This document shows positions 1 through 62,286 of a stretch of DNA of 64,000 nt, piece after piece. Below the pieces are notes generated by a model. That model worked only from the letters and a program-made list of their open reading frames with translations. It was not told where the DNA came from and did not search any database. Position 1 is the stretch's first letter. Every line of letters starts with the position of its first letter. The position numbers and the translations under genes are program-made. The DNA comes from Candidatus Margulisiibacteriota bacterium (GTDB lineage: Bacteria > Margulisbacteria > WOR-1 > O2-12-FULL-45-9): positions 83,423-147,422 of the forward strand of contig JBAZZP010000003.1 of assembly GCA_041658745.1 (NCBI GenBank). The letters are read 5' to 3'.

Positions 1-142
1 AAACAATCATCCCACAAAAGATAAACTGCAAATCTTGCTCAGAGAAATCAAACCTTTGGCTGGAAAAATAAAAAGAAAATACTAGTAGTCCAAGAACAAC
101 AAAAGCATTAAAAGCGGCAAATAATTTATAGGGTATTTTCAT
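1..142 (-). CDS. hypothetical protein, N-terminal fragment (continues past left edge)
   Basis: ATG at 142-140 overlaps the stop of the upstream ORF (TAATG). The frame stays open to position 1. Translation MKIPYKLFAAFNAFVVLGLLVFSFYF.. has a hydrophobic N-terminal helix. Confidence 0.3.
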   Translation of the reverse strand, partial: MKIPYKLFAAFNAFVVLGLLVFSFYFSSQRFDFSEQDLQFIFCGMIV

Positions 143-921
143 TATGGGATCCAAGGCACCTCCACGGTAATAACGGCTCCCGTACTAGCATTAATTTCGC
201 AGCGGGCAAACTCAGATTGAGCATTATAATCAAAAATAATTTGCCATATAGCATCACCGCCTAGCGTTAATGGGGAACTTAACCGAAAAACATCAAGAAA
301 CGGTTCAGTCTTTCCACTTTCCCAGCTAGCAACCAGTGGAATATTCCTAAAAATGGCAATTGCTTGCGTGCTGTCGATCGGCCAAGTTTCTAAGCTATTG
401 GAAAACGAAGGATAAAAATTAATATAAAGTTCATTTAATTTTGCAGAGTCTGTTTCGGGATATCGATAAGCGCCTCCGTCCACTCTAATTACCTCAAAAG
501 TTACTCCATCACTATAACAAAAATCCCAGTTTTCCGCAGTGGACACGACCGTTCCGCTTCCATGTTGCTCAGAAAGCCAGGCTTTTACTCCTACCAAGTG
601 ATATCCATCTGGGACAAGCCCCCAAGGTTCGCCCATTATATAACACCATCTTAGTCCGCCTACGGCAATAGTGGAAGTAGTCATCCCAGTTGTGGTGCTC
701 GTACTAGTTGTACTCGTCGAGGTCGAAGTTGTGCTCGTTGTGGTTGAAGTGGTTGTCTCGGTTGTTGTGGAAGTGCTGGAAGTGGAGGTTTCAGTTGAGG
801 TTGTAGCTGTGCTGGTTGTAGTAGTAGAAGTAGTAGCTCCGCAACCCATCCCAAACAAAACCAACAGAATAAAAAGGAACCCAAACGAACTAAAAAAAAC
901 TAAACCATTGTTTTTATACAT
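142..921 (-). CDS. putative lipoprotein with Thr/Ser-rich linker and C-terminal domain of unknown function
   Basis: 259-aa ORF. Signal peptide ends in a lipobox-like LFGMGC. A ~55-residue T/S run is encoded at about 671-840. No catalytic motif recognised. Confidence 0.6.
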   Translation of the reverse strand: MYKNNGLVFFSSFGFLFILLVLFGMGCGATTSTTTTSTATTSTETSTSSTSTTTETTTSTTTSTTSTSTSTTSTSTTTGMTTSTIAVGGLRWCYIMGEPWGLVPDGYHLVGVKAWLSEQHGSGTVVSTAENWDFCYSDGVTFEVIRVDGGAYRYPETDSAKLNELYINFYPSFSNSLETWPIDSTQAIAIFRNIPLVASWESGKTEPFLDVFRLSSPLTLGGDAIWQIIFDYNAQSEFARCEINASTGAVITVEVPWIP

Positions 922-933
922 CTTTTATTTCCT

Positions 934-2115
934 TCAGCTGAATAGATTTTTTAAAAGCTGGCTTCCTCGCACAATCTTCAACTTCGCCTTCCTCGCCTCT
1001 TTCTCATTATACCCCTGAATGCCTTTCCTTGCCATTCCTTGCCCTCCCTTGCCATCATAAATTACGAAAGGCACATCGTCCGCCGTATGTGTCATGTATT
1101 TGATCGGGGTTGGATGATCAGGAAGAACGAGTATCCGGGTATCCGGGGATCCGGGGATCAGGGAATGGTTTAATATATTCCCCACAACATATTTATCAAA
1201 ATCCTCAATCGCTTTAATTTTATGTTTAATATTGCCTTCATGACCGGCTTCGTCGGGCGCTTCAACGTGAACAAAGACAACATCGTGCTTTTTTAGTGCT
1301 CTCAGAGCAGCCTTTGCTTTCCCCACATAATTAGTATCTAAATAGCCGGTTGCTCCTGGGACTTTGATGACTTCAAGTCCAATAATTTTGCCAATTCCTT
1401 TTAGCAAGCCAACAGCAGTTATAATTGCTCCGCTTTTCCCAAATTGTTTTTTAAAAGTCGGCATCGTTGGCGCAGTTCCCTGCCCCCACAACCAAATCAT
1501 GTTAGCTTTTGACTTTAAATCATGCAGAATAACTTCGCCTTCGTTCATCAAGCGCAAAATAGCTTCAGACCCCTTCCCTTTCGGTAAATAATCGTGGATG
1601 CATTGGCCGGTGATGTCATGAGGTGGGGTAGTACCAACATTTGACATTTGACATTTGTCATTTGTCATTATCGTCATGATATGGCGATAGCTAACTCCAG
1701 TGTAAAAGCAAACATCTTTGCTTCCCAACTTCGCATTGAGTTGACGAATTATTTTGTCCGCTTCCTTGGTAGAAATGTGTCCAGCCGTGAAATCTTTCAT
1801 CTTGCCGTCTTTAACGGTCACCAGGTTGCAGCGGAAGGCTAATTCATTGTTCCGCAGTTTAATTCCCAGACTAGCAGCTTCGAGTGGTCCTCTACCCGAA
1901 TAATACTTTTTGGGATCGTAACCAAAAATGCTCATAGCAGCAACGTCAGATCCGGGCGGCATTTTGGGCGGAACGTTATTGGTCCAACCAACAAGGCCAT
2001 TGCGGGCCATAAAATCCAAGTTGGGGGTTTTGGCAACTTCAAGGGGAGTTTTCCCTCCCAAAGCTTTGAGTGGCAGATCGGACATTCCATCGCCGATGAG
2101 AACTAAATACTTCAT
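934..2115 (-). CDS. apgM: cofactor-independent phosphoglycerate mutase, archaeal type
   Basis: 393 aa. N-terminus MKYLVLIGDGMSDLP..GGKTPLEVAKTPNLDFMA, plus PPHD and VLPDHPTP..HTADDVPF motifs typical of ApgM. Confidence 0.85.
   Translation of the reverse strand: MKYLVLIGDGMSDLPLKALGGKTPLEVAKTPNLDFMARNGLVGWTNNVPPKMPPGSDVAAMSIFGYDPKKYYSGRGPLEAASLGIKLRNNELAFRCNLVTVKDGKMKDFTAGHISTKEADKIIRQLNAKLGSKDVCFYTGVSYRHIMTIMTNDKCQMSNVGTTPPHDITGQCIHDYLPKGKGSEAILRLMNEGEVILHDLKSKANMIWLWGQGTAPTMPTFKKQFGKSGAIITAVGLLKGIGKIIGLEVIKVPGATGYLDTNYVGKAKAALRALKKHDVVFVHVEAPDEAGHEGNIKHKIKAIEDFDKYVVGNILNHSLIPGSPDTRILVLPDHPTPIKYMTHTADDVPFVIYDGKGGQGMARKGIQGYNEKEARKAKLKIVRGSQLLKNLFS
1021..1056. repeat. decamer array GCCNTTCCTT (3.6 units) inside apgM
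   Basis: Reads gcctttcctt gccattcctt gccctccctt gccatc. It encodes ..DGKGGQGMARKG.. and belongs to the same family as 47901-47946. Confidence 0.8.
1133..1164. repeat. 4 x octamer array ATCCGGGN inside apgM
   Basis: Reads atccgggt atccgggg atccgggg atcaggga. On the coding strand it encodes ..SLIPGSPDTRIL.. Confidence 0.8.
1641..1677. repeat. heptamer array TTGNCAT x4 plus TATCGTCAT inside apgM
   Basis: Reads ttgacat ttgacat ttgtcat ttgtcat tatcgtcat. It encodes ..MTIMTNDKCQMSN.. Confidence 0.8.
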
Positions 2116-2980: not shown

Positions 2981-4219
2981 CTATTCAGGAGTAACGGTCA
3001 TTATCAGTTTGGCTTGGTCCGGATACTTGGCAATAAAAATCAATTCTTCTTTGGTGAGTGGCTTTTGGGTATGGACATTGGCATAGCGCACCAGTTCTAG
3101 AACTCGGGCTGCTTCTTTGTCATCTTTAAATTCTACTTCTAATTTTCCATAGACATTGGCAAAGCCTTTTATTCCGCTGTATTCACCTACAGTAATCATA
3201 CGGCCAGATTCAACTAGTTCGGGTTCCCCTCGGCCCAATTCTTCGTAATCATATAATTCGTAATTGCGGCGGTTTTTAAGGGCTCCGTCAGCATGAATCC
3301 CTGATTCGTGGGCAAAAGCATTCGAACCTACCCCTACCTGATTAACCGGCAAAGGAATGCCAAAAGCGTATGAAGCATATTTGGCAAACTGCCATATTTT
3401 ATTTAACTTGATATTTTCGGGGAAAAGATTTAAATCTTTAAAACCACTGGAATATTTCAAGGCTAAAAGAACAGAAAGCAAGTCGGCATTACCGGCTCTT
3501 TCTCCCATCCCATTAATGGTCGTATTAATATAAGCGTCTTGTCCGCCGTCAATAATTCCTTTGGCTCCCATCACCGAACAAGCCACTGCCATTCCCAGAT
3601 CATTATGGCAATGCGTCTCAAGTGCAATTTTAGCTTTTTGAGCTATCGTCTTTAGTTTTTCATAAATCGTGAAAGGATCATCGGCCCCCAAAGTATCGCA
3701 ATAGCGAACTCGTTTTGCACCAACTTCTTTGGCAGCTTGGGCAAATTCAACTAGAAAATTAATATCCGTCCTTGAAGCATCTTCAGCGTTAACCCCTATC
3801 GTTTCAGCTCCCATTTTATACCCGGCCTTAACGGCACGCTGCATATTGGTAATAATTTCCTGGCGCGAAAATTTGCCGCTAAACTTGGCTTCGAGCATAA
3901 TATCCGAGGTTGAAATCGACATATTTAAATGCTTTATTGTAGGCACTAATTTATAAGCCAATTCAACGTCTTTGGTAATCGCTCGGATCCAGCCTTCGAG
4001 TTTAATTGGGCTCAGAGCGCCTATCTCGGCGAGTTGTAAATTAGCATTCAGATAATTAACTTCGTGTTGGGTGAAAGGGAAACCAAATTCAGACTGGTAA
4101 ACCCCAATATCGTTGAGATACATATTAACAATGGTTTTTTCTAATTTGGCAAGGCCAATGCGTGAAGTTTGCACCCCATCGCGGTTTGTAACATCCAGAA
4201 TATGAATTTTTGGCATCAT
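2981..4219 (-). CDS. 2-isopropylmalate/homocitrate/citramalate synthase family enzyme (short form, no LeuA regulatory domain)
   Basis: 412 aa. Motifs ILDVTNRDGVQ, HCHNDLGMAVA and AFAHESGIH match the DRE-TIM aldolase HMGL-like family. Substrate specificity cannot be told from sequence by eye. Confidence 0.8.
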   Translation of the reverse strand: MMPKIHILDVTNRDGVQTSRIGLAKLEKTIVNMYLNDIGVYQSEFGFPFTQHEVNYLNANLQLAEIGALSPIKLEGWIRAITKDVELAYKLVPTIKHLNMSISTSDIMLEAKFSGKFSRQEIITNMQRAVKAGYKMGAETIGVNAEDASRTDINFLVEFAQAAKEVGAKRVRYCDTLGADDPFTIYEKLKTIAQKAKIALETHCHNDLGMAVACSVMGAKGIIDGGQDAYINTTINGMGERAGNADLLSVLLALKYSSGFKDLNLFPENIKLNKIWQFAKYASYAFGIPLPVNQVGVGSNAFAHESGIHADGALKNRRNYELYDYEELGRGEPELVESGRMITVGEYSGIKGFANVYGKLEVEFKDDKEAARVLELVRYANVHTQKPLTKEELIFIAKYPDQAKLIMTVTPE

Positions 4220-5207: not shown

Positions 5208-6209
5208 ATGCATTCATATCGCGAAACGCCCGCTCTATTAGATGAGATTATTGCACAGGCAATTTCCCAAAATGCATCTGATATCCATTTAGAGCCGCAC
5301 GAGAATCATCTTAAAGTGCGTTATCGAGTGGACGGGCTTCTGCAAGAAGGAGCCTCTGTTCCCAAGATAAAACAAGCATCGCTTACTTCCCGCCTTAAAG
5401 TGATGGTTAACCTCGATATCGCCGAAAGCCGACAACCGCAAGACGGAAGAACCAATCTGCAAATTAACAAAACAGCCTTTGATGTTCGGGTATCCACCAT
5501 TCCAACGATACATGGCGAAAAAGTAGTTATGCGACTGCTCAACCGCCAGCATGCCGCCCTGAAAATTGACGAGTTAGGGATGGAAAAAGAGGATTTAATA
5601 AAATATGAGAGGATGTTAAAGAAAAGAAGCGGAATAATTTTGGTAACTGGCCCAACGGGATCAGGCAAAACGACCACCCTCTACGCCACACTGTCCTATC
5701 TAAATTCGAAAGAGATAAACATCACGACCATTGAAGATCCGGTAGAATACCAATTGACAGGAATCAACCAAATTCAAATTAATCCAAAGGCAGGATTAAC
5801 TTTTGCTCGCGGGTTGCGCTCTATTTTGCGCCAAGATCCTGACGTTATCATGGTTGGTGAAATTCGCGATTTGGAAACGGCCAAGATCGCCCTACAAGCA
5901 GCGCTAACTGGGCATTTAGTCTTTTCAACCCTGCATACCAATGATGCGACATCAACCATTTGTCGTCTAATCGACATAGGGATCGAAAAATATTTAATCG
6001 AGTCAACCATTGTTGGAGTAATTGCGCAAAGACTAGTGCGCAAGAGAACTAGTGAGGGATATAAGGGACGCATTGGAATCTACGAAGTAATGGAAGGCAT
6101 CCAATCAAACACTGACATGTCTTCTCTTGCACAGAACGGAGAATTAAAAGTAGCACAGGGAATAACCACTAAAGAAGAATTAGCTCGCGTGCTTTATCTC
6201 GAACATTAA
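5208..6209 (+). CDS. compact GspE/PilB-family type II/IV secretion ATPase (core only)
   Basis: Motifs SDIHLEP..LKVRYRVDGLL, Walker A GPTGSGKTT, Asp box and His box TGHLVFSTLHTND. It lacks the N-terminal domains and the C-terminal tetracysteine motif. Confidence 0.8.
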   Translation: MHSYRETPALLDEIIAQAISQNASDIHLEPHENHLKVRYRVDGLLQEGASVPKIKQASLTSRLKVMVNLDIAESRQPQDGRTNLQINKTAFDVRVSTIPTIHGEKVVMRLLNRQHAALKIDELGMEKEDLIKYERMLKKRSGIILVTGPTGSGKTTTLYATLSYLNSKEINITTIEDPVEYQLTGINQIQINPKAGLTFARGLRSILRQDPDVIMVGEIRDLETAKIALQAALTGHLVFSTLHTNDATSTICRLIDIGIEKYLIESTIVGVIAQRLVRKRTSEGYKGRIGIYEVMEGIQSNTDMSSLAQNGELKVAQGITTKEELARVLYLEH

Positions 6210-6553
6210 CCACCACCGCCACCACCACCGCCGCCTCCGCCACCGGCCCCACCTCCAGCCCCTGCTCCTCCACCAGCTCCAGCTCCACCACTAGAACCAA
6301 CTCCTGGTCCTCCTCCCATATGCGCAAGAAGCGAAATAGCCAAAGCTTTGACATGTTGAAACAGGTTTTTCATGACATTGGTTTCTTGCAAAATTTGAAC
6401 CCGTGGGCATCTTTCGCAGAATTTAAACTCGGCCTTTAGCGGATTACAGGCAGCTTCTGGATAATAAATGCACTTTTTAAACCCTTCTTTTCTACGCTTC
6501 ATTTCTTTAGGGCTAATCAGCTTATTTGCCTCATCAATCTTATTTATTTCCAT
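6206..6553 (-). CDS. small Cys4 protein with hydrophobic helix and C-terminal Gly/Ala tail ending in G12
   Basis: 115-aa ORF. Cys pattern is C-x7-C-x9-C-x2-C, followed by NVMKNLFQHVKALAISLLAHM and then GGGPGVGSSGGAGAGGGAGAGGGAGGGGGGGGGGGG. Mixed GGT/GGC/GGA codons are used. Confidence 0.5.
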   Translation of the reverse strand: MEINKIDEANKLISPKEMKRRKEGFKKCIYYPEAACNPLKAEFKFCERCPRVQILQETNVMKNLFQHVKALAISLLAHMGGGPGVGSSGGAGAGGGAGAGGGAGGGGGGGGGGGG

Positions 6554-11768: not shown

Positions 11769-12671
11769 ATGCAAACCATTATCCTTTTAGGTCCTACTGC
11801 CGTTGGAAAATCAAAAGCGGCCGTTGAGCTCGCCCTTCAAATCAACGGCGAGATAATTTCCGCCGATTCGATGCAAGTCTATCGCGGCATGGATATTGGG
11901 ACCGCCAAACCGACCAAAGAAGAACAAAAAGGCATTCCCCACCACCTAATTGATATTCGCAACCCTGAAGAAAGCTGGACAGTCTCTGATTTTGTCGAAC
12001 AATCCAACCATCTAACCATCCAACTCTCCTCAAAAGGCAAAACGCCAATCATTGTGGGAGGCACGGGACTCTATTTATGGACCCTAATTAATGGCTATAA
12101 CTTTGCCGGAATTAAATCGGATGAAGCCATCCGGAAACGATTAGAGGAGCTTCCTCCCTCTACGCTCTATGCTCAACTTTCTACGGTCGATCCCCTTTCT
12201 GCCCAAAAAATCCATCCCCACAACAAAAAAAGAGTTATGCGGGCATTGGAAGTGTTTGAATTAACCGGGGAACCGATTTCGAAGCAGCAAGAAAAATTGG
12301 CAAACGGCAAACAGCTAACAGCAACCATTATCGGATTAACTCTGCCTCGCAACCAACTTTACGAACACATCGAACAGCGAATAGAAAATATGATAAAAGC
12401 GGGACTAATTGATGAAGTCAAAGGACTTCTAGACAAGGGATATTCGAAAGGGCTTACTTCTATGCAAGCCCTGGGATATAAAGAAGTGGTTGAATTTTTA
12501 GAGGGACGATGGGATCGAGAAAAATTGATCTATGAGCTCAAAAAACGCACTCGCCACTTTGCCCGCCGGCAAATGACCTGGTTTAGACGCTTCAGAAACG
12601 TTCAATGGATCGATGCAACCCCTGAAAATTTGAATAATCTGGCAAAGTTTGCTAGAATAGAGGAATGGTAA
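11769..12671 (+). CDS. miaA: tRNA dimethylallyltransferase
   Basis: Motifs LLGPTAVGKS, ISADSMQVYRGMDIGTAKPT and RRQMTWFR. Confidence 0.92.
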   Translation: MQTIILLGPTAVGKSKAAVELALQINGEIISADSMQVYRGMDIGTAKPTKEEQKGIPHHLIDIRNPEESWTVSDFVEQSNHLTIQLSSKGKTPIIVGGTGLYLWTLINGYNFAGIKSDEAIRKRLEELPPSTLYAQLSTVDPLSAQKIHPHNKKRVMRALEVFELTGEPISKQQEKLANGKQLTATIIGLTLPRNQLYEHIEQRIENMIKAGLIDEVKGLLDKGYSKGLTSMQALGYKEVVEFLEGRWDREKLIYELKKRTRHFARRQMTWFRRFRNVQWIDATPENLNNLAKFARIEEW

Positions 12672-20810: not shown

Positions 20811-22073
20811 CTACATAAACAATCTTTGGCTGCGTTTTTGGCGATGGAAAGTAATCGCAAAACGATGGGCTTCATCACGGATCCTTTGCAGTAGCATTAG
20901 CGCAGCAGAATGTTTTTCCAAAACTAGTGAATTTCTTTTATTTGGCATAAATATTTCCTCTTCCCGCTTGGCAAGGCTAATCAACGGTAAATCTAATCTG
21001 TTTGCTACGGATAGAGCTTTTAGCGCCGCTCCAAGCTGAGGCTTTCCCCCATCAATTAAGATTAAATCAGGCCAAGGAAGCTTTTTAGTTAGAGAATTAG
21101 AGTACCGCCGTTTAACAATTTCATAAATAGCAGCGGCATCGTTTGGATCAGGTCCAACTGTTTTAAGATTAAAACGGCGATAATCCCTTTTTAAAGGAAT
21201 TCCTCCCTGAAAAACCACCATAGATCCGACCATGTTGGATCCTTGAATATTTGAAACATCAAAGGCTTCAATCCGCATAGGAATTTTTGAAAGCCCTAAT
21301 GCTTTTTGTAGATCGTTTAATACGCTTACTCGCTGGCCTCCAGCTGGCCTTTCCAAATCTTTTGCTTCTAGCAACTTTTCCAATTGTTCCACTCGATCCC
21401 TTAACATACCTGCCCGCTCATAGTTTTGCTCTTGTGCTGCCTTTTTCATTTCATCATTGAGTTTAACAATTGCTTTATCACTCTTTCCTTCCAACAGCAG
21501 AATAATGCTCTGTATTAACTGCCTGTAGGCGGCATGACTTATCTGTTGCAAACATGGAGCAGCACAACTGCCAATCCGGCCAAACAAACAAGGTTGCGTT
21601 CTTGGTTTCAATGTCACTTCTTTGCACCATCTGACCGGATAAGTTTTTTTAATTAGCCCCAAAATAGTTTTTACCATCCCGCCACGATAGGGCCCAAAAT
21701 AACGAGCACCATCACTTTCTTTTCGACGAACCATAAAAACCCGCGGCCATTCTTCCTTAATAGTTATTTTGATATAGGGATAAGTTTTATCATCTTTTAA
21801 AACAATGTTATAGCGTGGTTGATATTTTTTGATTAGCTTATTTTCTAATATCAAGGCATCCATTTCGGAGGCAGTAAGGATCCAATCCAAATCATAAAGA
21901 CGGGTTAATAAAATAGCGGTTTTTAAATCATTGCCCTTTTTAAAATAGGAGAAAACTCGTTTGCGCAAAGACTTGGCTTTGCCAACATATATAATGTCAC
22001 CATTTTGGTTTTTAAAAAGATAAACACCCGCCGTTTCCGGCAAGGATTTAATTTTATCCTTCAAGGAAAACAT
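20811..22073 (-). CDS. uvrC: compact UvrC-like excinuclease subunit (GIY-YIG + UVR + RNase H-like endonuclease domain, no C-terminal HhH2)
   Basis: Motifs GVYLFKNQNGDIIYVGKAKSLRKRV, the Cys cluster, UVR motif YERAGMLRDRVEQLE, RIEAFDVSNIQGS and DEAHRFAITFHR. It ends at 420 aa. Confidence 0.75.
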   Translation of the reverse strand: MFSLKDKIKSLPETAGVYLFKNQNGDIIYVGKAKSLRKRVFSYFKKGNDLKTAILLTRLYDLDWILTASEMDALILENKLIKKYQPRYNIVLKDDKTYPYIKITIKEEWPRVFMVRRKESDGARYFGPYRGGMVKTILGLIKKTYPVRWCKEVTLKPRTQPCLFGRIGSCAAPCLQQISHAAYRQLIQSIILLLEGKSDKAIVKLNDEMKKAAQEQNYERAGMLRDRVEQLEKLLEAKDLERPAGGQRVSVLNDLQKALGLSKIPMRIEAFDVSNIQGSNMVGSMVVFQGGIPLKRDYRRFNLKTVGPDPNDAAAIYEIVKRRYSNSLTKKLPWPDLILIDGGKPQLGAALKALSVANRLDLPLISLAKREEEIFMPNKRNSLVLEKHSAALMLLQRIRDEAHRFAITFHRQKRSQRLFM

Positions 22074-22804: not shown

Positions 22805-23269
22805 TTAAAAAGGTATTTCGTCAATTTCTTTACTCTCGTCCCCTTCAATGGCCATTACGGGCCCTTTCTTCCCTTCCTCTCCCTCATGGGCCTTCACGGG
22901 CCCTTTGTCCCCCTCTTCTCTTTTTCCCAACATTTGGATATTATCCGCGATAACTTCGACCATGCTTCTTTTTTCGCCATCTCGTCCCACAAAATTACTG
23001 ACCTGCAGCCGGCCTTCTACCGCCACCGGTCGGCCTTTTTTAAGGTATTCGCCCACAATTTCGGCGGTTCTTCTCCATGCAACAATATTTATAAAATCCA
23101 CATCCTGGTTGGCAGATGAAGAATCATGCCCCGTAGCTTCTTGGGATTCTTCCTTGCGTTTAAACCGGTTTACCGCAACCGTAAAACGACAGACAGGAAT
23201 CCCCGAAGTGGTATAGCGAAGCTCCGGATCCCTCGTTAAATTCCCAATTATAAAAACTTTATTATACAT
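22805..23269 (-). CDS. ssb: single-stranded DNA-binding protein (paralogue 2, with internal 13-aa tandem duplication)
   Basis: OB fold MYNKVFIIGNLTRDPELRYT..CRFTVAVNR..FINIVAWR, with the acidic tip DEIPF. Confidence 0.85.
   Translation of the reverse strand: MYNKVFIIGNLTRDPELRYTTSGIPVCRFTVAVNRFKRKEESQEATGHDSSSANQDVDFINIVAWRRTAEIVGEYLKKGRPVAVEGRLQVSNFVGRDGEKRSMVEVIADNIQMLGKREEGDKGPVKAHEGEEGKKGPVMAIEGDESKEIDEIPF
22841..22918. repeat. 2 x 39-nt tandem duplication inside ssb paralogue 2
   Basis: It encodes EEGDKGPVKAHEG / EEGKKGPVMAIEG. An exact 14-mer, ccctcatgggcctt (22881-22894), recurs intergenically at 23298-23311. Confidence 0.7.
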
Positions 23270-35525: not shown

Positions 35526-37154
35526 ATGCAGCCAGAGCCAACCATTAAAATCCTCACCGAAGAACTAATCAACAAAATCGCTGCCGGAGAAGTGGTTGAG
35601 AGACCAGCCGCTGCGGTTAAAGAATTGGTTGAGAACTCGATTGACGCCGGCGCATCCAAAGTAAGCGTTGAAATTCAAGCAGCTGGCAGTAAACTAATCC
35701 GCGTTGCCGATAACGGCCGGGGAATGAGCCAAGAAGATTTAACTCTTGCGGTCCAACGCCATGCCACTTCCAAAATTAGCACCTTGGAAGACTTATTTAA
35801 CATTCAAACCCTGGGCTTTCGCGGAGAAGCGCTCTCCTCCATTGCCGCGGTTTCAAAATTTGATATCGAACAAAATCCTTCAGGACAAGGCGTTACCGTT
35901 ACGGCCAAAGACTTATTTTACAACACTCCCGCCCGCAAAAAGTTTTTAAAATCACCCTCGACCGAAATGGGACACATTGGCGACGTAGTTTCCAAATACG
36001 CCATGGCCTACCCAGAAATTGCCTTTGAATTAATTGTGGATGGAAAACCCCTCTTGCAATCCCCTGGATCAGGAAAACTAAAAGATGCCGTCTTGTCGGT
36101 TTACGGCTTAGAACTAGTTAAAGACTTGATTGCAATCGAAGGTAAAATTAACAACATTAAGGTCTCGGGCCTCATTAGTTTGCCCACTCTAACCCGGGTG
36201 GATAAAAATTATGAGAATTTTTTTGTCAACCGTCGTTTTGTAAAAAACTTCTTACTCAACCGGGCACTTGAAGACGCTTATCGTACTTTAATTCCCAATA
36301 ATCGTTATCCTGCAGCTATTGTCTTTATCGATGTCGATCCCAAACAAATCGATGTTAACGTCCACCCCACTAAACGCGAAATAAAGTTTGCCAATAATCA
36401 GGCCGTAATGGAAGCTGTTCGCACGGTTGTTCAGCAAGCCTTAGGCAACAAAACTCCCATACTCCATACTCCAAACTCCAATCTCCATACTCATTCCCAC
36501 TGGGATCCTCCGTGCCAGAAATGGGAACCAAGCATGGCTGACGTTCTCTTTCCGGTAGAGTGTGCGACTGGTGAAAATCTTCCTTTAAGGCCTGTTAGCA
36601 CTTACAAAGATACCTACATTATTACCACTGATGGAGAAGACCTGGTAATGATCGATCAGCACGCGGCTCACGAACGAGTGTTATACGACCGGCTCACAGC
36701 TCACAGCTCACAGCAAGCCCACGTTGAACAACAAACTTTGTTATTGCCCGAAAATATTGAGTTGGATACAAAAAGTTATTCAACAACCAAGGCAAATTTA
36801 GATTTACTGCGTGAGCTAGGCTTTGATTTGGAAGAGTTTGGCGGAAATGCCTTAATTTTACGCGCTGTTCCATCAATCTCGTCCAAGCTTAACCCTAAAC
36901 AACTCTTACTAGATATCGTGGCCGAATTAGACAATCTCGGCAAAAGCGTTCAAACCGAAACCAAACAAGAAAATATCCGCAAATTAATCGCTTGCCATAG
37001 TGCAGTCAAAGCAGGGGATAAATTATCCGCTCTCGAAATTAACCAACTGATCAAAGACCTTTATGCAACCCAAAACCCCATGACCTGCCCACACGGTCGA
37101 CCAATCATGTTTCGGATGACCGAAAACGAAATTAAAAAGAAATTTGCCCGCTAG
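35526..37154 (+). CDS. mutL: DNA mismatch repair protein MutL
   Basis: Motifs INKIAAGEVVERPAAAVKELVENSIDAG, DNGRGM, GFRGEAL, and C-terminal DQHAAHER and CPHGRP. Confidence 0.92.
   Translation: MQPEPTIKILTEELINKIAAGEVVERPAAAVKELVENSIDAGASKVSVEIQAAGSKLIRVADNGRGMSQEDLTLAVQRHATSKISTLEDLFNIQTLGFRGEALSSIAAVSKFDIEQNPSGQGVTVTAKDLFYNTPARKKFLKSPSTEMGHIGDVVSKYAMAYPEIAFELIVDGKPLLQSPGSGKLKDAVLSVYGLELVKDLIAIEGKINNIKVSGLISLPTLTRVDKNYENFFVNRRFVKNFLLNRALEDAYRTLIPNNRYPAAIVFIDVDPKQIDVNVHPTKREIKFANNQAVMEAVRTVVQQALGNKTPILHTPNSNLHTHSHWDPPCQKWEPSMADVLFPVECATGENLPLRPVSTYKDTYIITTDGEDLVMIDQHAAHERVLYDRLTAHSSQQAHVEQQTLLLPENIELDTKSYSTTKANLDLLRELGFDLEEFGGNALILRAVPSISSKLNPKQLLLDIVAELDNLGKSVQTETKQENIRKLIACHSAVKAGDKLSALEINQLIKDLYATQNPMTCPHGRPIMFRMTENEIKKKFAR
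36453..36500. repeat. degenerate heptamer array (ACTCCAN x6) in the mutL linker
   Basis: Reads actcccat actccat actccaa actccaa tctccat actcatt, encoding ..TPILHTPNSNLHTHSH.. Confidence 0.75.
36692..36712. repeat. perfect (GCTCACA)x3 tandem heptamer in the mutL C-terminal domain
   Basis: Reads gctcaca gctcaca gctcaca. The 21 nt stay in frame and encode LTAHSSQ. Confidence 0.9.
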
Positions 37155-37253: not shown

Positions 37254-37448
37254 ATTGAATATCTGGTGATCAGGAAATCTGGGAAGGGAGATCGGGGAAT
37301 CAGGATATCTGGATAGGGAAATCAAGACAGTAGAAAATTATAGATTTGAATAATTATTATGAAAATACGGTCTTAAAGGTTTATTTCCCCCTAATTTCCA
37401 GATGCCCGGATTCCCCTTTCCTGATTCCCCGATCCCCAGATACCCAAT
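37254..37448. repeat. 195-bp imperfect inverted repeat built from ATCNGGRN octamer arrays (MITE-like or cruciform-prone element)
   Basis: The left arm 37254-37322 and the reverse complement of the right arm 37383-37448 both read attgRRt-atctggNg-atcNggRa-..-agggRR-..-gggaaat. A 60-nt AT-rich spacer separates them. Confidence 0.7.
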
Positions 37449-47631: not shown

Positions 47632-48486
47632 TTATACCAGCTTCAAATTTATATCCAGTGCCTTAGAGGAATGCGTTAGCTCGCCAATCGAAATAAAATC
47701 CACGCCAGTAGCGGCAATTTTCGCAACTGTTTTTAAATTTACTCCGCCAGACGCTTCGGTTTTTATCCCAGCCTCTTTGCATAATTTAACCGCTTGCCTT
47801 AGAGTTTTAATCTCCATATTATCTAAAAGTATCCTCCCAGCCCCCACTTCAATTGCTTCTTTGACTTCCCCTATTGTCTTTGCTTCAATTTCCGCCCTAA
47901 GCCCTCTCCATCTTCCCTTGCCCTTCCTTGCCTTTCCTTGCCCCTCAACTGCTTCAATCGCTTCTTTCACGCCTCCCGCCAAAGCAATGTGATTATCTTT
48001 AATTAACACAGCATCGTAAAGCCCCATCCGATGGTTAGTTCCGCCACCACACTTGACCGCGTACTTTTCCAAGGAACGTAATCCTGGGATCGTTTTTCGA
48101 GTATCTAGCACTTTGACCATCGACAATGGACCCTGGACTTTTGCAACGAATTTTGCCGTCAGCGTAGAAACCCCAGAAAGATGTTGCAGAAAATTTAACG
48201 CTACGCGCTCGCCCGTTAGTATCCCGCGAGCTGGCCCAGACAGTTCAGCTAAAATTGTCCCCGCCTTAACTAATTGGCCATCTCGGCATTTTGGAATAAA
48301 TTTAATTCTACAATCGATCTGCCGAAAAACCTCACGGGCAATGTCTATCCCCGCAATAACTCCGGCTTCTTTAGCGCGAATAACCGCTTTGGCAATTTTA
48401 TCTCTTGCCACAATCGCATTGGTCGTGATATCTCCCGTGCCAACGTCTTCTTTTAGCGCCGCTTTAATTATTTCAATATAACCCAT
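47632..48486 (-). CDS. nadC: nicotinate-nucleotide pyrophosphorylase (carboxylating)
   Basis: Motifs DVGTGDITT, LDTRKTIPGLR, GGG.NHR.GLYDAVLIKDNH and LLDNM. Confidence 0.9.
   Translation of the reverse strand: MGYIEIIKAALKEDVGTGDITTNAIVARDKIAKAVIRAKEAGVIAGIDIAREVFRQIDCRIKFIPKCRDGQLVKAGTILAELSGPARGILTGERVALNFLQHLSGVSTLTAKFVAKVQGPLSMVKVLDTRKTIPGLRSLEKYAVKCGGGTNHRMGLYDAVLIKDNHIALAGGVKEAIEAVEGQGKARKGKGRWRGLRAEIEAKTIGEVKEAIEVGAGRILLDNMEIKTLRQAVKLCKEAGIKTEASGGVNLKTVAKIAATGVDFISIGELTHSSKALDINLKLV
47901..47946. repeat. decamer array GCCYTTCCTT (about 4.5 units) inside nadC
   Basis: Reads gccctctcca tcttccctt gcccttcctt gcctttcctt gcccctc. It encodes ..EGQGKARKGKGRWRG.. and belongs to the same family as 1021-1056. 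Confidence 0.75.
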
Positions 48487-49274: not shown

Positions 49275-49980
49275 TCACCTGCTCTTTAGTTTTACCAAAT
49301 TTGCGTGTACGTTTCTGAAAATCTTCGATGGCAGCAATTAGTTGTTCCCGGCGAAAATCGGGCCAATAAGTAGGAGTCACATAAATTTCGGCATAGGCTA
49401 TTTGCCATAACAGAAAATTGGACACTCGCATCTCATTAGCAGTACGAATCAGCAGGTCAGGGTCAGGCATGTTTTTTGTGTATAGATATTGGGAAATTGT
49501 TTCCTCGTTTATTTCGTCATTTTTTAATTCGTCATTCGTCATTCGTTTACATGCATCTACTAGTTCGGCTCGCCCCCCATAATTAACCATTACATTTAAA
49601 GTGATGCGAGAATTGTTTTTGGTGGTTTCCATTGAGTTCTTCATTCTTTGTTGCAAGGCCAAAGAAAATTGTTCGAGCCGACCTAAGAAGTTAAGCTTAA
49701 CACTATTGGCCATCAAATCATCGATTTCACTATCAATGGTTTGCATAAAAAGATCCATTAAAAAATCAACTTCTTCTTGTGGTCTCCTCCAATTTTCGGT
49801 AGAAAAAGCATAGACGGTTAAATATTTTACGCCAAACTCAGCACAAGCCTTGAGGATTGCTCGAACAGATTCTGCTCCTTCTTTGTGGCCAGCAATGCGC
49901 GGCAGACCCTTTGCCTGCGCCCAACGCCCGTTCCCATCCATGATAATTGCAATGTGTTGAGGAATGTTATTGCGATCCAT
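49261..49980 (-). CDS. uppS: di-trans,poly-cis-undecaprenyl-diphosphate synthase
   Basis: Motifs HIAIIMDGNGRWA, AFSTENW.RP and RVSNFLLWQIAYAE. Confidence 0.92.
   Translation of the reverse strand: MDRNNIPQHIAIIMDGNGRWAQAKGLPRIAGHKEGAESVRAILKACAEFGVKYLTVYAFSTENWRRPQEEVDFLMDLFMQTIDSEIDDLMANSVKLNFLGRLEQFSLALQQRMKNSMETTKNNSRITLNVMVNYGGRAELVDACKRMTNDELKNDEINEETISQYLYTKNMPDPDLLIRTANEMRVSNFLLWQIAYAEIYVTPTYWPDFRREQLIAAIEDFQKRTRKFGKTKEQVSDVA
49513..49548. repeat. heptamer repeats TTCGTCA (1 + 3 tandem) inside uppS
   Basis: Reads ttcgtca(49513-19) .. ttcgtca ttcgtca ttcgttt(49528-48). It encodes KRMTNDELKNDEI. Confidence 0.75.
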
Positions 49981-52427: not shown

Positions 52428-54254
52428 GTGCCTCTCGAAACCACCCATTATCCTAAAGAATATGATGTAATCGTCATTGGCGCTGGGCATGCAGGAATTG
52501 AAGCTGCCTTGGCGGCAGCTCGCATGGGTTGTCAGACCTTACTCTTAACTATCAACCTTGATACGATTGCTTTTATGGCCTGTAATCCCGCCGTGGGGGG
52601 GCCGGCAAAAAGCCAATTAGTACGCGAAGTTGACGCTTTAGGCGGACAAATGGGAGTATCGACCGATTTAACTTTCTTGCAGATGAAAATGCTCAACACC
52701 ACCAAAGGCCCAGCGGTTCAAGCTTTGAGAGCCCAGTCTGACCGCAATTCCTATCACGTCACTATGAAACAGGTCCTCGAAGAACAAACCAATCTTGATC
52801 TAAAACAAGGGATTGTCGAAGAACTTCTTTCCGACTCACGCCCCCATACGCCCACCGATTCACCCGACGCAACCACCACCGCTAGACGCATTACGGGAGT
52901 CCGCACAAATCTCAACATGGTTTACTCAAGCAAAACCGTTGTGGTAACAACAGGAACGTTCCTCAATGGCATCGTTCACGTTGGAATGACCCACATGGAA
53001 GCCGGCCGAGCAGGAGAATTGCCCGCTAAAGGTATGTCTGAAAGTTTGGTAGCACTGGGATTAGAACTTGGAAGATTAAAAACCGGGACTCCAGCCCGAT
53101 TAAATAAACGCTCGATCGATTTTTCTAAAATGATCCCGCAGCCTGGCGACGAACCACCAAAAATGTTTTCATTTGTCTGGGAATATCAACAATACGGGTT
53201 ATCGGGGAATCCGATGATCGGGGGATCTGGGACAAATCAAATTCCTTGTCATTTAACCTGGACTACTCCTCAAACTCACGCAATTATCCGAGCAAATCTT
53301 GATCGTTCACCGTTATTTCAGGGGAAAATTAAAGGAACGGGGCCTCGCTATTGTCCGTCGATTGAAGATAAAGTTGTTCGCTTCCCTGAAAAAGATCGAC
53401 ATCAATGTTTCATTGAACCGTGCGGGAGAGACACGCTGGAAATGTACGCCCAAGGCATGAGCACCAGCCTTCCCGCCGATGTACAACTAGAAATGCTAAG
53501 AACTATGCCAGGGCTTGAAAATGTAGAAATGCTGCGGCCGGGATACGCCGTTGAGTATGATTACGTCAAGCCCTCTCAACTCTTGCCCACCTTAGAAACC
53601 AAACAGATTACTGGGTTGTTTTGTGCTGGACAAATTAACGGGACTTCGGGCTACGAAGAAGCGGCCGCGCAAGGAATTGTAGCGGGGATAAACGCCGCAC
53701 TTAAAGTTAAAGAGAAAGAGCCGCTCGTGCTGGGGAGAGAAAACTCATATATTGGAACTTTAATTGACGACCTAATCACCAAAGATATTGACGAGCCTTA
53801 TCGCATGTTAACTTCACGCTCCGAATATCGCTTGCTTCTGCGACAAGATAATGCCGACCTGCGGTTGACAGAAAAAGGTTATCAGGTTGGTTTAATTTCT
53901 AAAGAACGTTTTTCTAGTTTTCAGAAAAAGAAAGCGGCAGTTGAATCTGAAACAGTTATTTCCCCGGAAACAGAAGAACAAATCGCCATAACCAAAAAAT
54001 ATGCAGGCTATATAATGCGCCAATTGCAACAAATCGAGCGTTTTAAAAAACTGGAACACAAAAAATTGCCCTCGGATTTTGATTACTCGGAACTACGAGG
54101 ATTATCTAATGAGGCTCGAATTAAACTGGCCAAAATTCAACCCCTTTCCATCGGACAAGCCACCAGAATTGCGGGAGTTTCTCCAGCCGACATTTCTGTT
54201 TTGCTAATTCACCTTGAAACCCGTGGACGCTCAAAAGAATCTATGCTAAAATAA
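52428..54254 (+). CDS. mnmG: tRNA uridine 5-carboxymethylaminomethyl modification enzyme MnmG/GidA
   Basis: Motifs [35 protein letters not shown] and [16 protein letters not shown]. The start codon is non-ATG (GTG). Confidence 0.92.
53201..53232. repeat. 4 x octamer array ATCNGRNN inside mnmG
   Basis: Reads atcgggga atccgatg atcggggg atctggga. It encodes ..[12 protein letters not shown].. and belongs to the same family as 1133-1164 and the arms of 37254-37448. Confidence 0.75.
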
Positions 54255-55652: not shown

Positions 55653-56818
55653 AAATTGCCTTCTTTTCTAATTGCTACCTGCCCTATCTTAGCGGAATAA
55701 CGATTTCCATTAAGACTCTGCGAGAAAGCTTAGAAGCTCTAGGACACGAAGTTTTTGTGGTTGGACCAGAATATCCTAATTTTAAAGAAACCGATCGGCA
55801 CGTTTTACGCTTGCCTTCCATCCCAGCCCCCTACCCAGGCTATCGTTTTGTTTTTCCGTTTTCGGCCAAAGTTTTTAAGCAGCTGAAAGAAGAAAAGATC
55901 GATATTATCCATGCTCATCAGCCATTTGGAATCGGTCTTTCTGCTCTATATTTATCACGCAAATTACAAATCCCTTTAGTGTATACTTTTCACACTCTTT
56001 TCCCCCGTTATGTCCACAACGTTCCGTTCGTTCCGTCGGTAATTTCTAAAGCGATCACTGTTCGTTATCTCCGTTTCTTCTGCAATCAAGTAAATGCGGT
56101 GATCGCTCCGTCGACGATGGTTAAAAGATATTTAAAGATCTTAGGTGTAAAAAAACCAATCGAGGTTGTGCCAACGGGGGTTAATGTCGGAAAGATACAA
56201 GACACAAGGGACAAGGCACAAATATTATCCAAACATCAAATTCCAAATAATTCAAAAATACTCCTCTTTAGCGGGAGGATTTCGGAAGAGAAAAACATCT
56301 TGTTTCTTATAAAAGCATTCCCTTCTATTTTAGAAAAAGCTCCCGGCACATATCTTGTCCTGTGCGGTGGGGGACCAAAAGAGGCTGAATACCGAAAATT
56401 TGCTAAACAATTTACCGATCGGATTATTTTTGCCGGCCAAATCCCGCACACAGAATTAACCGCTTATTATCAGGCAGCCGATCTATTTGTTTATTCTTCA
56501 ATCTCAGAAACCCAAGGGCTGGTTTTATGCGAAGCTAAGGCTAATGGACTCCCCATTGTTGCCCTTTTTGGCGGAGGATTAACCGATGTGGTAGAAAGCG
56601 GGATTGACGGATATCTTGTTCCGCGCAATCCAGCCATTTTTGTTGAGCATGTGGTCCGTTTATTAAACGACGATCAATTACGCGCTAAAATGGCCACAAG
56701 GGCCAAAGAAGATGCACTAGCCCGCTTTTCACCAAAAACAGTCGCCAATAAAATGATTTCTGTTTACCAGAATTTAGCCGGCATACAGATTTGCATATCA
56801 AAAGATAGTGCTTTATAA
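55649..56818 (+). CDS. GT4-family (GT-B fold) glycosyltransferase
   Basis: N-terminus MKIAFFSNCYLPYLSGITISI and the C-terminal E-x7-E region SISETQGLVLCEAKANGLP. Confidence 0.8.
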   Translation: MKIAFFSNCYLPYLSGITISIKTLRESLEALGHEVFVVGPEYPNFKETDRHVLRLPSIPAPYPGYRFVFPFSAKVFKQLKEEKIDIIHAHQPFGIGLSALYLSRKLQIPLVYTFHTLFPRYVHNVPFVPSVISKAITVRYLRFFCNQVNAVIAPSTMVKRYLKILGVKKPIEVVPTGVNVGKIQDTRDKAQILSKHQIPNNSKILLFSGRISEEKNILFLIKAFPSILEKAPGTYLVLCGGGPKEAEYRKFAKQFTDRIIFAGQIPHTELTAYYQAADLFVYSSISETQGLVLCEAKANGLPIVALFGGGLTDVVESGIDGYLVPRNPAIFVEHVVRLLNDDQLRAKMATRAKEDALARFSPKTVANKMISVYQNLAGIQICISKDSAL

Positions 56819-61209: not shown

Positions 61210-62286
61210 ATGTCCAAACAAACTCCCCTTTATTCCCAACATATAAAGCTTGGTGCCAAAATGGTTCCCTTTGGCGGCTGGGATATGCCGGTTTCGTATA
61301 AGGGCATCATTGAAGAGCACAATGCTACCCGCAAGGCGGCGGGACTGTTTGATATTGGCCATATGGGACTGATTAAAATTGAAGGCAAAGACGATCTGAC
61401 TTTTATCCAAAGTGTTGCTACCAATGATGCTTCCCTTTTGGCACTAAACGAATGCCAATATTCTATTCTTTGTACTCCTAGCGGTGGAGCAATTGACGAT
61501 ATTTTGGTTTACCGTTTACCGATGTTTTATATGATTATTTGCAATGCCTCTAATTTTGATAAAGTCATGGCATGGCTAACCGAAAAAGCAAAAGATTATT
61601 CTTCTTTAATTGTCGCGCCCTATGAAAATTATTGCGCTATCGCCCTGCAGGGCCCAAAAGCAATTTCGCTGACCGAAAAAACCCTAAAGGTTCCGCTTTC
61701 TTCTCTCAAACGCAACCATACGCTTTGGTGGCGCGATATTATTATCTCCCGCACCGGCTATACCGGCGAGGACGGGGTTGAAATGGTTATCGCCAAAAAT
61801 GAAGTGGCAAAGATTTGGGAAATGTTTATCGCAGCGGGAGCACAACCCTGCGGCCTGGGCGCACGCGACACCCTGCGGCTTGAAGCGGGGCTTCCACTTT
61901 ACGGACATGAATATAATGATCAGACCTCTCCGCTTGAAGTTGGTTATAGTTGGGCGGTAAAGTTGAACAAGGGAGAATTTGTTGGGCGAGAAGCATTGCT
62001 TAAACAAAAAGAGCAAGGATTAACAAAAAAGCTGGTTGGATTGGAAGTTGAGGGAAGGGCAATTGCAAGACAAGGGGGCGAAGTGTATGGTCAAGAGAAA
62101 GTAGAAAATGGAAAATTGAAAATAGGAACTGTATCGAGTGGAACGTTCTCCCCAACCCTGCAAAAACCAATTGCTTTGGCCTTCTTGGATCCAACACATG
62201 CCAAGATTGGAAACCTGGTCCAAGTTAAAATCCGCGAAAATTTCGCAAACGCTAAGATTGTTGCTAAATCGTTCTATAAGCGATAA
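61210..62286 (+). CDS. gcvT: glycine cleavage system aminomethyltransferase T
   Basis: MSKQTPLYSQHIKLGAKMVPFGGWDMPVSY.., with GYTGEDG. I prefer the ATG at 61210, because TATAAT lies at 61198-61203, 6 nt upstream. Confidence 0.92.
   Translation: MSKQTPLYSQHIKLGAKMVPFGGWDMPVSYKGIIEEHNATRKAAGLFDIGHMGLIKIEGKDDLTFIQSVATNDASLLALNECQYSILCTPSGGAIDDILVYRLPMFYMIICNASNFDKVMAWLTEKAKDYSSLIVAPYENYCAIALQGPKAISLTEKTLKVPLSSLKRNHTLWWRDIIISRTGYTGEDGVEMVIAKNEVAKIWEMFIAAGAQPCGLGARDTLRLEAGLPLYGHEYNDQTSPLEVGYSWAVKLNKGEFVGREALLKQKEQGLTKKLVGLEVEGRAIARQGGEVYGQEKVENGKLKIGTVSSGTFSPTLQKPIALAFLDPTHAKIGNLVQVKIRENFANAKIVAKSFYKR
62103..62123. repeat. 3 x tandem heptamer NGAAAAT inside gcvT
   Basis: Reads agaaaat ggaaaat tgaaaat. 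The 21 nt stay in frame and encode ..VENGKLKI.. Confidence 0.7.

Follow-up and report, generated by a model that had tools for sequence, protein, structure and literature searches.

An octanucleotide simple-sequence repeat in a variable loop of the phosphoglycerate mutase gene apgM of a Margulisiibacteriota bacterium

Results

In this study, we describe a short tandem array with a non-triplet unit that lies in frame inside a housekeeping gene of a Candidatus Margulisiibacteriota bacterium. The DNA analysed is a stretch of 64,000 nucleotides of contig JBAZZP010000003.1 (assembly GCA_041658745.1, positions 83,423 to 147,422), hereafter the window, and statements on the source genome refer to these 64 kb. 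The host gene, apgM (934-2115, minus strand, 1,182 nt), encodes a cofactor-independent phosphoglycerate mutase and is intact and full length, its product matching NCBIfam PRK04200 from end to end with 549.8 bits. Read directly on the plus strand, positions 1133-1164 consist of four phased octamers, ATCCGGGT ATCCGGGG ATCCGGGG ATCAGGGA, 32 nt in total (ATCCGGGN on the plus strand, CCCGGATN on the coding minus strand). This is the arrangement given in an earlier reading of the sequence alone (the original prediction), and Tandem Repeats Finder agrees with it, reporting 1133-1163 with a period of 8, 3.9 copies, 91% matches and a score of 48. The coding strand of the array reads CCCTGATC CCCGGATC CCCGGATA CCCGGATA, and its unit is CCGGATNN on that strand and ATCCGGNN or GGGNATCN on the opposite one. 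The array is located 200-230 nt upstream of the apgM stop codon and encodes ApgM residues ~318-329 (SLIPGSPDTRIL), the translation around the tract being ..NHSLIPGSPDTRILVLPDHPTP... With head-to-tail units and a period of 8, the tract falls under the definition of a simple-sequence repeat (unit 5-11 nt). It is an octanucleotide simple-sequence repeat of DNA-level origin, situated in a permissive loop, which is tolerated by the protein and is not a protein repeat.

In the AlphaFold model of ApgM, whose mean predicted local distance difference test score (pLDDT) is 89, the octamer-encoded residues occupy the end of helix 296-318, the coil 319-325 and the start of strand 326-332, and this strand runs into the invariant LPDH metal-binding residues (Asp-His of LPDHPTP). 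The octamer-encoded loop is 3 residues longer than that of the P. horikoshii enzyme, for which a structure has been solved, with a similar excess over orthologues of ~50% identity. An alignment with orthologues had been proposed as a way to recognize an insertion, and on this point the outcome is divided: the apgM tract is a remodelled loop with three additional residues rather than a clean insertion, whereas the related array in mnmG is an insertion, as described below. The hairpin energy of the apgM octamer array equals that of shuffled sequences on either strand (z about 0).

The octamer family extends to two further places in the window. The two-unit pattern ATCNGGRNATCNGGR has 10 matches in the window, whereas dinucleotide shuffles predict 0.05 (a count of 10 was attained in 0 of 100 shuffles), and all of the matches fall at three loci, namely 1133-1163 in apgM, 37269-37313 (plus strand) together with 37397-37441 (minus strand) between mutL and topA, and 53217-53231 in mnmG. 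The proposal that these three loci share a family of units is thereby borne out. The element between mutL and topA is an inverted repeat whose left arm (37254-37308) carries ATCNGGRN units on the plus strand and whose right arm (37394-37448) carries them on the minus strand. The arms are 55 nt each, 76% complementary and 85 nt apart, and the element folds better than shuffled sequences (z = -3.9). A terminator scan at the inverted repeat found none. It occurs as a single copy in the window and, judged by eye, has no obvious target-site duplication.

The array in mnmG (53195-53232, plus strand, with the G-rich strand sense) encodes residues 256-269, 14 residues in all, and its units are ATCGGGGA ATCCGATG ATCGGGGG ATCTGGGA. 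The original prediction regarded ATCNGGRN as the building block of both the inverted-repeat arms and this four-unit array; this is correct for the arms and for three of the four mnmG units, one unit being deviant. In comparison with solved structures, residues 256-269 form a 12-residue insertion relative to Escherichia coli MnmG and one of 6 residues relative to the Aquifex protein. Most Margulisbacteria MnmG orthologues have the same loop length and a related peptide; a Saganbacteria genome carries the homologous octamers GGTTATCC GGTTATCC GGATAACC GGTTAGCC GGATTGCC at this site, and the closest relative has a 13-mer array in place of octamers. A second insertion of ~15 residues relative to the solved MnmG structures lies at 52830-52875 (residues ~135-150); among orthologues it is either lacking or hypervariable, and it has no clear period. 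Outside these genes, an octamer array in the metagenome-assembled genome (MAG) of a relative, at locus L008 (L numbers denote loci used for comparison), encodes DRVSGNQGIRGSGT in an open reading frame (ORF) with a putative likeness to ComEA, judged by eye.

An origin at the level of DNA rather than of protein, as first proposed, is supported because synonymous recodings never match the periodicity, because an 8-nt period gives no repeat in the peptide, and because the unit is found on opposite coding strands as well as in non-coding DNA. In the recoding test the peptide was kept and codons were drawn according to the codon usage of the window. The apgM array has 26 of 31 possible lag-8 matches, whereas 20,000 synonymously recoded versions averaged 13.4 and never exceeded 23, and 0 of 20,000 come up to the observed value. 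The G-rich strand is antisense in apgM and sense in mnmG (52428-54254, plus strand), and both orientations agree with the initial description; moreover, ATCNGGRN units are also present in the non-coding DNA between mutL and topA. It could be argued that the periodicity is a by-product of selection for a Pro/Gly/Ser/Asp-rich turn combined with codon bias, in view of the fact that related peptides of the form G[YSC]P[DE][ITV]R recur in 9 of 30 orthologues. However, this explanation is already refuted by the recoding test, and it accords neither with the lack of an amino-acid repeat, nor with the occurrence of the unit on the opposite strand in mnmG and in non-coding DNA, nor with the unrelated peptide found at the octamer site of the closest relative (L001). 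We therefore consider it extremely improbable. Three other interpretations of the tract were rejected: a protein repeat, as the 8-nt period yields none; a CRISPR array, the units being too short and spacers absent; and a sequencing artefact, the same arrays being present in independent assemblies.

When ApgM was aligned with 29 relatives (63-86% identity), the three apgM arrays of the window mapped precisely onto the three loops of the protein that are hypervariable and prone to indels. At the codon level, comparison with three relatives showed that all three loops are non-triplet arrays in 4 of 4 genes. The octamer belongs to loop 2, and at this position L002 has TATCCGGA x 4, of the same family and in the same frame as the octamer of the window, L003 has AACATCM x 7, and L001 (86% identity) has a 14-mer array. 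The relatives' loops in general hold either the same octamer in frame or unrelated 7-, 8-, 10-, 11- or 14-mers. Among the 84 apgM genes compared, arrays occur at these loops in 8 of 9 close relatives (62-86% identity) versus 1 of 75 orthologues at ~50% identity, and the apgM loops of this outgroup are slightly shorter and non-periodic. Period-7 arrays are nevertheless enriched in the loci of the ~50% identity orthologues (L130-L204), at 7.7 per 100 kb versus ~0.3 in shuffles of the window, at places other than the apgM loops.

Octamer arrays in the same frame are present in apgM of L002, L129, L207 and L208, and homologous same-frame arrays occur in orthologues that are 68-70% identical; in all five lineages carrying the octamer the array has ~4 units. 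Orthologues with an IRLSGYPDIR-like peptide keep the octamer periodicity. An octamer-type loop 2 is found in 9 of 30 ApgM sequences, and for none of these nine does the nearest neighbour (75-94% identical outside the loops) carry an octamer-type loop. Because the octamer-type loop is patchy and nearest neighbours are without it, the apgM octamer array is, as judged from these comparisons, apparently old and yet overwritten repeatedly by unrelated arrays in many lineages, including the closest relative.

The orthologues also bear on whether the array might act as a switch. Gain or loss of one 8-nt unit would turn apgM off or on by frameshift, phase-variable loci classically have a repeat unit of non-triplet length within a coding sequence, and slippage-prone repeats are abundant in the source genome. 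Nonetheless, no internal stop was found in any of the 84 apgM genes, and members of the same ApgM cluster differ by in-frame replacement and not by frameshift. The hosts of the arrays are core housekeeping genes, here a glycolytic enzyme, and not surface, restriction or virulence genes; the array has four imperfect units only and lies in the last fifth of the gene. A contingency locus is thus weakly refuted, and we regard it as very improbable.

A functional G-quadruplex or other non-B DNA element modulating the transcription, replication or translation of apgM, similar to the GGGNATC repeats of Xanthomonas and Nostoc, seems unlikely as well, although the plus strand offers a canonical four-tract motif with 4-5-nt loops (the 27-mer GGGTATCCGGGGATCCGGGGATCAGGG, one of two in the window) and shares the GGG-N-ATC core and the four units with published repeats that form quadruplexes in vitro (PMC4692102). 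Two motifs versus 0.64 expected do not amount to an enrichment, and the arrays of apgM and mnmG face opposite ways with respect to transcription. The homologous apgM arrays of orthologues are of the CCGGATAT type, which lacks G-tracts, most of the arrays nearby, AAATGTC and CCATACT among them, are unable to form quadruplexes, and the folding of the array into a hairpin is no better than that of shuffles.

The octamer is not the only array of its kind in the window. We show that the tract belongs to a population of non-triplet arrays, with units of 7, 8 and 10 nt, which reside in variable loops and linkers of housekeeping proteins in this genome and its relatives. In a census by lag against dinucleotide shuffles, the window contains 8 lag-7 arrays versus 0.17 expected, 2 lag-8 arrays versus 0.2 and 2 lag-10 arrays versus 0.07, with the remaining lags at background level; heptamers are the dominant class. 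All arrays of the census lie within housekeeping coding sequences, namely apgM (three), miaA, mutL, nadC, uppS, frr, a GT4 glycosyltransferase gene and gcvT, and the mnmG octamer array, which escaped the census, was added by hand. The original prediction was right as to an octamer family at three loci and overlooked this wider set, including the two further non-triplet arrays of apgM itself. One of these is a decamer array at 1020-1053 (minus strand; GGCAAGGRAN x ~3.5 on the coding strand) that forms ApgM loop 3 (GKGGQGMARKGI), whose pLDDT in the AlphaFold model is below 50. The other is a heptamer composite, (AAATGAC)2(AAATGTC)3, at 1637-1669 (minus strand), which forms loop 1 (MTNDKCQMSNV).

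The unit family of the loop-3 decamer returns in a decamer array of nadC (47916-47942, minus strand; GQGKARKGKG), with 4-5 units in the window versus about 2 in L210, the sequence in the window being ~9 residues longer. A decamer-type element of ~72 nt (GGGCCCGTGAAGGCCCATGA..., peptide GDKGPVKAHEGEEGKKGPVMAIEG) lies in the C-terminal linker of ssb (22842-22912, minus strand). Two heptamer arrays are located in or near the interdomain region of MutL, CCATACT x ~4.5 at 36457-36487, just past the N-terminal domain, and GCTCACA x 3.3 at 36692-36714 (both plus strand), and their periodicity is matched by 0 of 20,000 synonymous recodings. In uppS a GAATGAC-type heptamer array is found at 49527-49546 (minus strand; KRMTNDEL). 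Weaker 7- and 8-nt arrays were seen in miaA, at 11998-12024 (plus strand; an octamer array, AACCATCC x ~3.4, of a unit family different from ATCNGGRN) and at 12299-12322, in the interdomain linker of the GT4 glycosyltransferase (56192-56221) and in gcvT (62096-62123).

With regard to the rest of the window, neither a transposase nor a reverse transcriptase was found among the 34 ORFs scanned with Pfam and NCBIfam, all of which are housekeeping or unannotated, the remaining ~25 ORFs being outside the scan; no Rfam family matched in a scan of the whole window. Three further genes drew attention for their structure. The ORF at 142-921 (minus strand, 259 aa) has an N-terminal hydrophobic segment and a long Thr/Ser-rich region derived from 21- and 24-nt repeats (706-775), and has no Pfam match. 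The ORF at 6206-6553 (minus strand, 115 aa), immediately downstream of a T2SSE ATPase gene that is encoded by the opposite strand, ends in a poly-Gly/Ala tail made by triplet, 12-nt and 30-nt repeats (6209-6291). The product of uvrC (20811-22073) has 420 aa only, with GIY-YIG, UVR and RNase H-like regions and no match to the usual C-terminal helix-hairpin-helix region.

Beyond the phylum, a census of ATCNGGRN arrays, which had been put forward as a check, showed that the family is much wider than three loci: four consecutive units occur in at least 120 stretches across many phyla in a scan of 185,579 species genomes, versus ~0.07 expected by chance according to our own estimate. Among the matches listed are Streptomyces, Acidobacteriota, Planctomycetota, Omnitrophota, Gemmatimonadota, WOR-1/Margulisbacteria and others, often with long perfect arrays. 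This finding and the conserved periodicity in orthologues run contrary to the picture of a family restricted to three loci and lacking DNA periodicity in orthologues, which the original prediction had named as evidence against itself. Inverted pairs of ATCNGGRN arrays with a short spacer, mirroring the mutL-topA element, were also seen in L086 (5564-5688) and L017 (1260-1390), in unrelated and partly GC-rich genomes.

Discussion

Taken on the evidence of the sequences compared, we favour, with moderate confidence, the explanation that the apgM tract is an octanucleotide repeat of long standing, which arose by strand misalignment or template switching and is tolerated in a permissive loop. Arrays of this type would arise and be reshaped through strand misalignment, that is, by replication slippage, by template switching within and between arrays and by conversion between similar units, and these processes appear to be unusually productive for 7-10-nt units in this lineage. 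Selection would retain only the events that leave the frame intact, create no stop codon and fall into structurally permissive loops. An octamer array of such origin need not have a function; formation of a G-quadruplex on the template strand is conceivable.

Comparisons between closely related strains show that loops with such arrays are mutational hot spots. Within ApgM clusters of 90% identity, most or all of the differences between members are at the three loops, and they are in frame. Between L211 and L213 there are 10 differences in 21,230 nt, 8 of them within 56 nt of the loop-3 array, each of these eight being a transition. L207 and L208 have different arrays in a loop of aroA, and one of the two has a 21-nt palindrome insertion in the prephenate dehydrogenase gene; the L003 and L004 loci are identical. 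A diversity-generating retroelement target was considered and rejected: there is no second copy of the region in the window, the loop-3 strain differences of relatives are all transitions, occur in both directions and are not adenine-specific, and no reverse transcriptase was found among the 34 ORFs scanned, a scan that covers part of the ORFs of the window. As a separate observation, a short palindrome, GCCTGCCGGCAGGC (ACRQAG), lies in frame in different genes of relatives (L208 17928-17939, L008 7502-7513, L147 1329-1340 and loop 2 of ApgM P0054); the palindrome CCTGCCGGCAGG (ACRQAG) is absent from the window.

Several observations weigh against strand misalignment as the explanation of the tract. 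Simple slippage alters the copy number and not the unit, and leaves unexplained both the replacement of one unit by another and the identical composites in different genes. Slippage by a single 8-nt unit would shift the frame of an important gene, so that only rare three-unit or compensated events are viable. L205 and L206 differ by 4 single-nucleotide polymorphisms in ~1.8 kb outside apgM loop 3, and loop 3 itself is swapped wholesale, with sharp borders, a 51-nt 11-mer array in one and a 66-nt 8-mer array in the other. The identical 32-mer AATGACAAATGACAAATGTCAAATGTCAAATG, that is, (AAATGAC)2(AAATGTC)3 encoding MTNDKCQMSN, is present in apgM loop 1 of the window and of L003 (10444-10476; the protein is 66% identical) and in aroA of L207 (14724-14755). 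A longer form of this heptamer composite, copies of which hold 3 or 5 GTC units, occurs with five at a gene end in L221 (~4000-4047); it was reached by a protein search with a chimeric 42-aa query of element peptides, which returned one 55-aa ORF. Because the L221 copy sits at a gene end, a reading-frame filter cannot explain it. Moreover, the ~72-nt ssb element (22842-22912) is homologous to the ApgM loop-3 array of L001, with a score of 75 versus a shuffle maximum of 34 and 22 nt exact. The identity between octamer units is 0.77-0.81 within arrays versus 0.62-0.84 between lineages; because the former is not clearly above the latter, ongoing homogenization of the octamer is not demonstrated. 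To these may be added that the ApgM protein cluster of the source genome has a single member and that the GGGNATC(N) motif recurs in very distant phyla, a recurrence which hints at a sequence-specific cause.

The loop swap, the identical composites and the element shared by ssb and loop 3 suggest copying between loci. From this point of view the array could be a copy of a very small dispersed element, pasted from locus to locus by ectopic template switching in the course of repair at fragile repeats or by the machinery of a mobile element, an account that we regard as possible but doubtful on the whole. Copies of such an element would survive only in frame and in permissive loops, by analogy to the palindromic elements of Rickettsia or the small dispersed repeats of Nostoc, and this part of the account we can likewise put forward only tentatively. 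In addition to the three cases just named, it gains from the decamer family being present in both apgM and nadC, from the octamer family being spread over apgM, mnmG, the intergenic inverted repeat and the putative ComEA-like ORF of L008, and from the patchy distribution of octamer-type loops among nearest neighbours. On the other hand, neither target-site duplications nor constant termini were seen, sizes and unit numbers vary, and the scanned ORFs hold no transposase or reverse transcriptase. No donor copy of the replaced loops was found in the loci compared, where searches for these, for the octamer and for the decamer gave only trivial or same-family matches. The heptamer composite and the decamer element are both absent from viral contigs, and 4-unit octamer arrays were found in only 7 viral stretches. 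The sharing of units can in part stem from the stop-codon filter, and the octamer arrays of apgM and mnmG look old and vertically inherited in several lineages. A broader form of the idea is that Margulisbacteria and their relatives actively overwrite short segments that code for loops in housekeeping genes, in a sequence-templated manner, with tandem-repeat cassettes from a shared repertoire, the apgM octamer being one old product; we offer it as a speculation that is possible but rather doubtful.

One would expect non-triplet tandem repeats to be removed from essential coding sequences. Here they form variable loops of core enzymes across a candidate phylum, and near-identical strains, in the pairs compared, differ almost only at such loops. 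This provides a concrete and testable system in which to study how short tandem repeats arise and move and how new loop sequence arises in conserved proteins. Loops with arrays are a source of error when Margulisbacteria MAGs are aligned, placed in phylogenies or typed to strain, and they offer natural markers to strain-resolved metagenomics. If templated overwriting were true, the process would continually generate new protein loops.

We found no report in the literature of in-frame non-triplet arrays in Margulisbacteria, and it is with repeats of other bacteria that the tract must be compared. In the NCBI taxonomy, the Margulisiibacteriota stand in the Cyanobacteriota/Melainabacteria group. 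Cyanobacteria reportedly possess the STRR heptamers, and Nostoc punctiforme small dispersed repeats, in work that is attributed to Mazel in 1990 and Elhai in 2008. Cyanobacterial heptamer arrays have embedded dispersed sequences of 20-30 nt and are sometimes found inside conserved genes. To our knowledge, the STRR and the small dispersed repeats have been without a known mechanism for decades, and we know of no description of a systematic occupation of protein loops or of strain-level loop replacement by them. The likeness lies in the sister lineage and in families of heptamer arrays. Unlike STRR1-3 of heterocystous cyanobacteria, which are heptanucleotide, the apgM unit is an octamer with a host in the Margulisiibacteriota, and the neighbouring heptamers are of other sequence; no homology to STRR1-3 was seen, and none was searched for.

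In a wider context, the commonest long simple-sequence repeats of many bacteria are those with heptanucleotide units, for which polymerase slippage has been held responsible (Mrazek 2007, as summarised in PMC4679880), and TAACTGA repeats occur in Beggiatoaceae and cyanobacteria according to the same account (PMC4679880). As far as that summary goes, the arrays of the window resemble these repeats in having head-to-tail 7-10-nt units beyond chance expectation, heptamers as the dominant class, a sporadic phylogeny and families common to distant taxa. They differ in that the known ones, as summarised there, are mostly intergenic and avoid non-triplet units in coding sequence, whereas here essentially all are in frame in loops of housekeeping genes, with turnover of the unit between relatives.

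The GGGNATC repeats of Xanthomonas and Nostoc lie mainly between genes, within 50 bp of ORF ends, occur by preference as four units and form quadruplexes in vitro (Rehm et al. 2015, PMC4692102). The apgM tract shares with them the GGG-N-ATC core, typically four units and a dispersal on both strands. Its period is 8 and not 7, it is intragenic and not near ORF ends, and homologous copies in relatives lose the G-tracts; the at least four G-tracts of that class are present in the apgM tract at the level of the motif (GGGTATCCGGGGATCCGGGGATCAGGG). The inverted repeat between mutL and topA, for its part, recalls REPIN and MITE hairpins, which likewise have two inverted arms (here ~55 nt) with a spacer and lie between convergent or co-directional genes (PMC3116915, PMC10969869). 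Its arms, however, are tandem octamers, and the analysis revealed neither a cognate transposase nor a target duplication for it, nor a set of full-length copies.

Rickettsia palindromic elements are ~100-150 bp long, have a conserved peptide and are inserted in frame in housekeeping genes (Ogata et al. 2000, 2002; reviewed in PMC10969869). As these elements are portrayed in that review, the likeness is that copies of one DNA repeat family are scattered over unrelated housekeeping genes, in frame and where the fold of the protein can accommodate them; the difference is that the apgM tract is a 32-nt tandem array with no significant hairpin, whose unit is shared without fixed ends. Set against these systems, the apgM tract departs from the GGGNATC repeats in period and location and from the Rickettsia elements in size and in the palindrome, and it is, by definition, a simple-sequence repeat.

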